From Escherichia coli (lineage in GTDB: Bacteria > Pseudomonadota > Gammaproteobacteria > Enterobacterales > Enterobacteriaceae): a stretch of DNA of 64,000 nucleotides. The position numbers were made by a program. Below, in pieces: positions 173 through 3,100 of the stretch. The number at the start of each line of letters is the position of its first letter. The stretch's first letter is position 1. The DNA is taken from NCBI RefSeq assembly GCF_017348835.2, contig NZ_CP071375.1, one strand, 5' to 3'.

Positions 173-3100
173 TGATGACTTTTCGCCGTAAATAACTCCA
201 GGTTTACGGCGAGTTTGTGAAAAGAGCGTTTTTTGATATTTTTTTGTGAGTAGAATTTGTAATGCTTAGACGTTCTTATTAACTCAAGGAGTCCGTCATG
301 AGCAAAATATCAGATTTGAATTATTCTCAACACATTACATTAGCCGACAATTTTAAACAAAAAAGTGAAGTTTTAAATACCTGGCGTGTTGGAATGAATA
401 ATTTTGCCCGAATTGTCGAGGGGCAGGATAACACAAGAAATATCCTTGATCCTAAGACATTTTTGGAGTTTTTGGTAAAAATATTTACCTTGGGTTATGT
501 GGATTTTAGCAAACGCTCCAACGAAGCGGGTAGAAATATGATGGCTCATATTGAGTCCTCATCTTATATCAAAAATAATGATGGCAGTGAAATAATGCAG
601 TTTGTTATGAATAATCCTGAAGGGGAGCGAGCGGATTTATCTAAGGTGGAAATAGAAATTACACTTGCCTCAGCTTTTAATAATGGGATTCGTGAAGGAC
701 ATACAGCCATTATATTTTCACAACCTGATGGTTCGACTAATCCTTATGAAGGAAAATCCTTTGAAAGAAAAGATGAGAGTTCATTACACCTGATTACTAA
801 CAAGATTCTGGCGTGTTACCAACGCGAAGCTAACAAGGAAATAGCTCGTCTATTAAATATTCCGCAGGAGTTAAATAATCCTCATGACTTAAATTACTCG
901 CAGGTGAGTTGTAAAAACTCAGTTGATTCTACGATTACGGATTTATTAGAAAAACCATTGAACAATGCATTATTAGCAATAAGGAAAGAACATCTGCTAT
1001 TAATGCCTTATATGTGTAATGAATCGATTTCATACTTACTTGGTGAAAAATGGACACTGAAAGAAATAGATGCCCTTAACGCCTTAAATAATTATCTTAT
1101 TAATAATAAGAAAGCTACTGACAATGAAATTAATGACATCAAAGTTAACCTGTCTCATATTCTTATTGATTCCTTAGATGATGCGAAAGTTAACCTTACA
1201 CCGGTTATCGGTTCGATTCTGGAGACTTTTTTAAAATCCCCATATATTAATGATGTAAGAATACTGGATTGGTGTTTTAATAAAAGCATGCAATATTTTG
1301 GTGATTCTGAAAAGATAAAGTATGCATGCTCTGTGATAAATCATATTGATTTTAGCTGCGATCAATCTAAAATTAAAATAGCTGAGACCTTATTTTTTTA
1401 ATCTCGATAAAGAACCCTATGAAAATAGCCGTAAATTACAGGAATTGATTTGGGATAAGTTGGTTGCGTATGTCAATGATTTTAACTTAAGCAATCAAGA
1501 AAAATCACGCTTAATACTAAGGTTATTTGATGATGTTAAGTTGCTATTTAATGAAGTGCCTGTCAGCATTTTAGTAAATGATATTTTTTTGAAGGATTTT
1601 TTCATGAGGCAACCTGATTTTGCGAAGTGGTACTTCTATCAATTACTTAAGAAGTATGAGGGCGAACAGCTGTATCTTAATGAGTTAGGATATGTTTATG
1701 GTAATGAAGAAAAAACAAATGAAATTGTAAAAAAACATCCGGGTTATGTCATTAAGATTTTTGAAGAAAAGATGGGTAATGAATTAAAAATTAGAACAAG
1801 AATGATGAAAATCCTCCGGAATGGCAAAATCAATATATATGAATATATGAATATATGAATATATGAATATATTAATAATGAACAGTTGGGAAAATTAAAT
1901 CCTCCGGAAGATTTACGTATAGTAATAGAAAAATTTGGGTGGTAGAATAGAACTATTACTACATAAAATAATGTGATGCCGGGATAGTTTTGTATTTCCC
2001 GGCATCTTTATAGCGATATCAATTATTTACTGAGCGTCGCGACCATCACCGCTTTGATGGTATGCATACGGTTTTCCGCCTGATCAAAAACAATGCTGGC
2101 GGCAGATTCGAAGACCTCATCAGTCACTTCCATTCCGCCATGTAGGCCAAACTCTTCCGCCATTTTCTTACCAAGCGTCGTCTGGTCGTCATGAAACGCG
2201 GGCAGGCAGTGGAGGAATTTGACCTCCGGGTTACCGGTCAACTGCATCATCTTGTTATTCACCTGATAATCACGCAGCAATGCAATCCGTTCCGCCCATT
2301 TCTCTTTTGCTTCACCCATCGACACCCATACATCGGTATAGATAAAGTCAGCACCTTCTACTCCTTTGGCTACATCTTCCGTCAGCGTAATATTCCCGCC
2401 ATTTTGCTGTGCCAGGGCGCGGCATTCCGTAACCAGCGCAGCTTCCGGCCAGCATGCCTGTGGCGCGACCAGACGCAAATCCAGACCGGTAAGCGCCGCA
2501 GCTTCGAGCATCGAGTTTCCCATGTTGTTACGCGCGTCACCTGCATAGACCAGCGTCATTTCGTTGAATGCTTTGCCGGGCAAATGCTCCTGCATGGTGA
2601 GAAGATCCGCCAGCAGCTGCGTGGGGTGAAACTCATTGGTCAGGCCGTTCCATACCGGCACGCCAGCGTATTCCGCCAGTGTTTCGACAATCTCCTGACC
2701 ATAGCCGCGATACTGAATACCGTCATACATGCGACCAAGCACGCGGGCAGTGTCTTTAATCGACTCTTTATGACCAATCTGGCTGCCGCTTGGGCCGAGA
2801 TAAGTAACACGAGCACCCTGGTCATATGCGGCAACTTCGAAAGAGCATCGGGTACGAGTCGAGTCTTTTTCGAAGATGAGCGCGATGTTTTTACCAGTGA
2901 GTTTGGCTTCTTCTTTACCGCTTTTCTTATCGGCTTTCAGCTTCGCGGCTAACTGCAACAGGCTGTTGAGTTCAGCTGGCGTGAAATCGAGTAATTTCAG
3001 GAAATGCTTATGATAAAACCCGGACATAGATCCCTCCTGTGGCTAACGTCTCAATGAATTAAAATTCAATTTATATGGATGATTATTCATTTGCAAGTCT

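Follow-up and report, generated by a model that had tools for sequence, protein, structure and literature searches.

A +1 frameshift at a T tract in an Escherichia coli yjgL (icaR) allele is inherited and very probably reflects ordinary decay of a silent gene

Results

Organization of the yjgL locus

The window analysed here, a stretch of 64,000 nucleotides from Escherichia coli, carries a disrupted copy of yjgL, the orthologue of icaR, between the 3′ end of tabA (yjgK) and argI/argF (Table 1). The gene was identified both by tabA–yjgL–argI(argF) synteny and by homology to K-12 YjgL. It has a GC content of 32%, compared with 49% for the window. The PM4 allele, a close relative of the window allele, has a dN of about 0.14 relative to K-12.

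Comparison of YjgL with Pfam gave a match to the SopA central domain only, and this was sub-threshold: residues 282–366 scored 17 bits (E = 0.008), where the cut-off is 27. No match was obtained in NCBIfam, and no sequence match in the PDB. When positions 100–2100 were scanned, promoter-like matches were no more frequent than in shuffled sequence and terminator-like sites numbered zero. The MxiE-box consensus GTATCGTTTTTTTANAG, which may be inexact, had no match with up to three mismatches upstream of 298. A conserved MxiE box has been reported in E. coli icaR promoters (PMC9241512).

Gene callers placed a 137-aa ORF in the downstream part of the gene, starting at TTG 1445. We rejected this ORF as an independent gene; the AGGA that precedes it lies just 1–2 nt upstream of the TTG, too near to serve as a ribosome-binding site.

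Table 1. Features of the yjgL locus and their positions in the window.
Feature	Position	Strand	Description and basis
tabA (yjgK), 3′ end	ends ~175		upstream of yjgL; synteny and annotation of orthologous RefSeq loci
yjgL (icaR orthologue), whole pseudogene	298–1945	+	ATG 298 to ancestral stop TAG 1943–1945; synteny, orthologous RefSeq loci, alignments
First ORF	298–1401	+	367 codons and TAA; N-terminal two-thirds of YjgL
24-bp in-frame unit (GATTTTAGCTGCGATCAATCTAAA)	1348–1371	+	8 aa; single here, tandem duplicate in many related alleles
Second frame	1382–1858	+	displaced YjgL continuation ending at TGA 1856–1858; homologous from AAT 1400–1402
T7 homopolymer	1393–1399	+	+1 insertion relative to T6; puts TAA 1399–1401 in frame
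Second T7 run	1584–1590	+	in frame here; T8 (+1) allele in 5 complete genomes; 439-aa product class
A7 run	1729–1735	+	A8 (+1) allele in 43 complete genomes, including the F2_81 sub-lineage; 485-aa product class
8-bp tandem repeat (ATATATGA)	1835–1872	+	four full copies and partial ATATAT; Tandem Repeats Finder (array 1835–1882), alignments
Stranded 3′ coding remnant	1859–1945	+	encodes the conserved C-terminal ...NPPEDLRIVIEKFGW and ancestral TAG 1943–1945
argI/argF	2023–3027	−	beyond the yjgL 3′ end; synteny and annotation of orthologous RefSeq loci

The frame break at the T tract

The first ORF ends ...AETLFF*, and the T7 run contributes its final base as the T of the stop codon. The +2 frame is closed by TAG 1379–1381 and then stays open until TGA 1856–1858. 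Recomputation reproduced exactly the boundaries given in a preliminary description of this DNA for the ORF, its TAA and the open stretch of the second frame. Removing one T in silico produced a single ORF of 519 aa. The earlier proposal that a one-T deletion would fuse the two frames into a protein of about 519 aa was therefore correct as to the fusion, but the fused product is not full-length, since it runs into a second lesion at TGA 1856–1858.

From position 1400, the shifted frame encodes NLDKEPYENSRK..., which is identical to the close intact PM4 allele up to the 8-bp repeat. We aligned 22 orthologous loci. The intact alleles among them are 524–623 aa long, and all have LFFN across the site: PM4 (548 aa), BL21 (550), O145 (555), GZ2408P (524), O157 (584), K-12 (604) and O7:H15 (623). 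LFFNLDKEPY spans the tract site uninterrupted in intact alleles, with Asn as the codon directly after Leu-Phe-Phe. The possibility that intact homologues end naturally at the first stop had been raised in the preliminary description; they instead read through that position.

The majority form of the tract among the alleles is TTA TTT TTC AAT (T5C, TTATTTTTCAAT), which is carried by K-12, BL21, O157, O7:H15, GZ2408P and KY171. One allele clade has T6 by way of a synonymous C>T change (TTC>TTT), and T7 is found in the window, PE164 and F2_81. These three forms make up a nested series, which indicates a polarity of T5C to T6 to T7 and identifies the break as a +1 insertion.

There are 27 homopolymers of at least 7 nt in the 64-kb window, including two runs of 9 nt and three runs inside yjgL, and the T7 run is not unusual for this window. 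Both of the other 7-nt runs in yjgL have +1 alleles in complete genomes (Table 1), and the C-terminus of the 439-aa product shows the T8 shift. The tract that breaks the frame is thus one of several equally fragile sites in the gene. The 24-bp unit upstream of the tract varies as well; where an extra copy is present, it occurs in two sequence variants, GCTGCG and GTCGCG.

A second lesion in an 8-bp repeat

The TGA that ends the second frame lies in an 8-bp tandem repeat, of which the window has four full copies versus one in intact alleles (PM4, GZ2408P). Three full copies in frame 0 read ATA TAT GAA TAT ATG AAT ATA TGA, so any array of at least three full copies stops at the position of 1856–1858. 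Two full copies shift the frame. PM4 and other close intact alleles continue to a TAG equivalent to 1943–1945. When both lesions were repaired in silico, the product was 540 aa long and ended ...NPPEDLRIVIEKFGW; even the K-12 and O157 alleles, divergent as they are, have a clearly related C-terminal tail.

Arrays equivalent to 1–6 copies were found among otherwise near-identical alleles; this figure comes from one spread-sampled BLAST restricted to records covering the whole query and is a range, not a set of frequencies. The repeat explains many of the "frameshifted" and "internal stop" flags that RefSeq places on the yjgL locus. A literature search found no description of an 8-bp repeat in yjgL.

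A 13-bp direct repeat (AAATCCTCCGGAA, at 1809–1821 and 1897–1909) brackets the 8-bp array. The interval between its two copies is absent in KY171-like alleles, as expected of a deletion between direct repeats. Many genomes matched just the first ~47 nt of the repeat query, which suggests that the deletion form is common.

Distribution and origin of the T7 allele

Exact ~90-mers were compared with 5,426 complete E. coli genomes to count tract lengths. The counts are specific to tract length, since one indel is enough to take a match out of the band of ≥99% identity. T6 was found in 212 genomes and T7 in 6, while T5 and T8 were each found in none; T7 therefore accounts for 6 of the 218 genomes with matching flanks. 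The preliminary description had asked whether T6 and T7 alleles both occur, and they do. In a collection of 15 billion proteins, at least 23 contigs of other assemblies (NCBI, Logan, ENA) encoded the exact 367-aa product. A look-up of encoding contigs returned 24 with the 367-aa product, and T7 was present in all five of the loci fetched.

We also looked for the T6 (ON) form of the window allele in the same collection. The 519-aa and 540-aa reconstructions were both absent; the look-up covered these two products, and a version with two repeat copies would have a different C-terminus.

T7 occurs on three allele backgrounds. Group A consists of PE164 and F2_81 along with the window, from which they differ by 0–1 substitutions, and its nearest T6 relatives are E. 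coli C, NCTC86 and AZ147 (2–4 substitutions). Group B (ws5-3, B25FEP and 23CRST029) is 24 substitutions from the window and just one from the T6 strain A34. Group C is represented by TUM9803, at 55 substitutions from the window, with PM4 and M159-1 as its nearest T6 relatives (2–3 substitutions). Given these three backgrounds, T7 probably arose more than once. Nearly all of the substitutions that separate the backgrounds sit 5′ of 1263. The state of the 24-bp duplication (none, GCTGCG form or GTCGCG form), located 45 bp upstream of the tract, also differs between them. This duplication is the one marker in the immediate vicinity of the tract, and nothing else speaks against short-patch recombination. 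Independent origins are likely, with such recombination a possible alternative.

Across the neighbouring 22 kb, F2_81 is the best match to the window (99.9%). Close T6 strains, J2 and PCP06173 among them, are equally good matches, so the T7 insertion falls within a tight clonal group. T7 was constant in every group A member examined, while the 8-bp repeat in the same members had 1, 3, 4 or ~5 copies. The tract was also unchanged across strains from China, Australia and elsewhere. One sub-lineage, made up of F2_81, the locus L023 and ~19 similar contigs, combines T7 with A7>A8 at 1729–1735 and a single copy of the 8-bp repeat. The A7>A8 change on top of T7 does not restore the frame. Three distinct lesion combinations are thereby found inside a T7 group whose members differ by 0–1 substitutions.

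The same T7 allele is already in RefSeq as a frameshifted pseudogene. PE164 LZG51_RS25040 and F2_81 CPH39_RS27055, both annotated by PGAP as "DNA-binding protein, frameshifted," share with the window the locus, the T7 allele and the frame break. They differ from it in the 8-bp repeat (four full copies in the window, three in PE164 and one in F2_81), and the A8 frameshift of F2_81 is absent from the window. The feature is of an ordinary and known kind.

Constraint and decay of yjgL across E. coli

Pairwise dN/dS between intact alleles was 0.37–0.69, with dS up to 0.28, a very high divergence for alleles of one species. Set against the values typical of E. coli core genes, which served as our yardstick, we read these ratios as a sign that yjgL is weakly constrained.

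All 15 of the fetched loci labelled "DNA-binding protein" by RefSeq were flagged as pseudogenes. This label was found on 16 of 40 evenly spaced rows, from which we roughly estimate that ~40% of locus-bearing genomes may carry a disrupted copy. The locus is wholly absent from ~600 of the 5,426 complete genomes, and 4,824 genomes match it. Truncation points of YjgL differ by lineage and include 367, 439, 447, 485, 519 and 527 aa.

Published observations on icaR describe a similar fate. In Shigella, the gene encodes a substrate of the type III secretion apparatus that is activated by MxiE/IpgC; in E. coli, it is silent without MxiE and IpgC, neutral evolution has been suggested, and truncation by IS elements is frequent (PMC9241512). 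S. flexneri 2457T has icaR as a pseudogene (PMC9769918), and icaR/yjgL is interrupted by IS elements in O104:H4 isolates (PMC3486847).

Discussion

We consider it very probable that the break in yjgL is a genuine +1 frameshift, passed on vertically and inactivating, and that it belongs to the ordinary decay of a gene that is silent and under weak constraint. The locus has the marks of a pseudogene: orthologues that read through the stop, downstream homology in the shifted frame, an inherited lesion and further disabling lesions. A fixed inactivating mutation was one of three explanations offered in the preliminary description, alongside phase variation and a sequencing indel, and it is the one favoured by the inherited T7 and the lesions added to it.

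The sequence of events would be as follows. The ancestral codons would have been TTA TTT TTC AAT, and in one clade the synonymous TTC>TTT change would have lengthened the T run from five to six. Replication slippage most likely then added the seventh T in an ancestor shared by PE164, F2_81 and the window strain, bringing TAA into frame after codon 367. The gene carries a second, independent lesion, the expanded 8-bp repeat that creates the TGA at 1856–1858. The stop would have escaped counter-selection because yjgL is neither expressed nor needed in such a strain, and the allele would have been inherited vertically as more lesions were gained. The lesion, its T6-to-T7 polarity, its rarity, its inheritance and the added lesions are shown by the data; the mechanism (slippage) and the reason for persistence (lack of selection) are what we infer from this pattern. 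Across E. coli, the locus is being lost piecemeal, through frameshifts in homopolymers, expansion of the repeat, IS elements and deletions. A likely cause is weak constraint on a horizontally acquired gene that stays untranscribed unless the Shigella activators MxiE and IpgC are present.

Two observations fit this explanation less comfortably. The presence of T7 on three backgrounds marks a recurrently mutable tract, which a phase-variable tract would also show. In addition, the N-terminal region is kept in the 367-aa product, so the frameshift is only presumably inactivating. In Shigella, an even shorter IcaR (27 kDa) is stable and secreted (PMC9241512).

By analogy with that truncated Shigella protein, the 367-aa N-terminal fragment might be a functional truncation maintained by selection. 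C-terminally truncated Shigella IcaR is stable and is secreted through its N-terminal signal (PMC9241512), and the window product keeps residues 1–367, including the weak SopA-like stretch at 282–366. We nevertheless think this unlikely. The lineages end at different points (367–527 aa), which leaves no common selected end, the T7 allele is rare, and no evidence points to expression where E. coli lacks MxiE and IpgC (PMC9241512).

Very unlikely, in our judgment, is slipped-strand phase variation, in which the T tract would be a reversible ON/OFF switch for YjgL kept by selection. T6 and T7 do both occur, T7 has recurred on three allele backgrounds, and a hypervariable 8-bp repeat sits within the same gene. 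However, the tract is only 6–7 nt long and is interrupted (T5C) in most alleles. Just 6 of 218 genomes with matching flanks have T7, with zero T5 or T8 alleles, and T7 stays constant across countries though the 8-bp repeat varies. Neither of the two ON reconstructions sought, of 519 and 540 aa, is on record, and a non-compensating second frameshift and a downstream stop have accumulated. The other runs in yjgL behave alike, in a window with 27 runs of at least 7 nt. A short tract that is constant in its lineage, together with a further frameshift that does not compensate, speaks against this option of the preliminary description.

The comparison with the contingency loci of Haemophilus, Neisseria, Campylobacter and Helicobacter is instructive here. 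The likeness consists of a homopolymer frameshift within coding sequence and, in the same gene, a short tandem repeat of variable copy number. Unlike those loci, the window tract is short and usually interrupted, the OFF state is uncommon and passed on stably, further lesions have built up, and there is no sign of reversibility. Tract length above background, uninterrupted conservation and ON/OFF interchange among close relatives are features of contingency loci that this locus lacks in the alleles examined.

A broader variant is that the 3′ third of yjgL/icaR as a whole is a hypermutable module, composed of three homopolymers and an 8-bp repeat of 1–6 copies, with the T7 allele as one of its states. 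We regard this as quite improbable. If it were true, changes in repeat length would decide whether a substrate of type III secretion has its conserved C-terminal tail (...NPPEDLRIVIEKFGW), and a hypermutable module would exist in E. coli, where few simple-sequence switches are known.

We give very little credence to recoding, in which the full-length frame would be partly restored by a +1 slip of tRNA-Phe at UUU UAA or by RNA polymerase slippage on T7. UUU-pyrimidine sites and stop-adjacent slippery codons cause low-level +1 frameshifting in E. coli. After a +1 shift at this site, the P-site codon would again be UUU and the A-site codon would be the ancestral AAU, restoring LFFN. The likeness to the programmed +1 frameshift of prfB is formal only: UUU UAA permits tRNA-Phe to re-pair at +1, and the ancestral frame is then resumed. 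Unlike prfB, the window site has no Shine-Dalgarno-like or GGAGG-like stimulator in the few nucleotides upstream, and it is a rare derived allele (6 of 5,426 genomes) that is not conserved. The product would still end at TGA 1856–1858, and yjgL has been reported as silent in E. coli (PMC9241512).

Finally, indel errors fall most often in homopolymers, but a sequencing or assembly indel in a genome that truly has T6 is effectively excluded by the presence of T7 in six independently assembled complete genomes, including the nearest relatives PE164 and F2_81, and of the exact truncated product on at least 23 contigs from several sources.

Read as ordinary decay of a silent gene, the frameshift carries little biological weight; yjgL is another silent, horizontally acquired gene eroding at homopolymers. 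The locus resembles icaR (gem3) of S. flexneri in orthology, tabA–yjgL–argI context, AT-richness and frequent C-terminal truncation (PMC9241512, PMC9769918). Whereas the published icaR truncations are attributed to IS insertions, the window gene is broken by a +1 insertion in a homopolymer and by expansion of an 8-bp repeat. A further difference is that Shigella icaR works with MxiE, IpgC and the secretion apparatus, whereas the window yjgL is known here from sequence alone. Lesions in simple repeats thus join the published IS elements as a cause of icaR/yjgL truncation, and apparently a common one. This route to truncation and the hypervariable 8-bp repeat are mildly new, being absent from the published account.

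For annotation, positions 298–1945 are best treated as one pseudogene with two lesions and not as two genes, and the 519-aa "repair" should not be mistaken for the native protein. Because its copy number varies among near-identical alleles, the 8-bp repeat at 1835–1872 is a possible fine-scale typing marker.

Farther along the window, a tRNA-Leu(CAA) lies at 16313–16397, which we take to be leuX from the K-12 map. The part of related genomes that aligns with window positions 2000–24000 spans ~21.9–33 kb and is annotated with an integrase, IS30, and primase-helicase and HTH proteins. This suggests an integrated island whose content depends on the strain.
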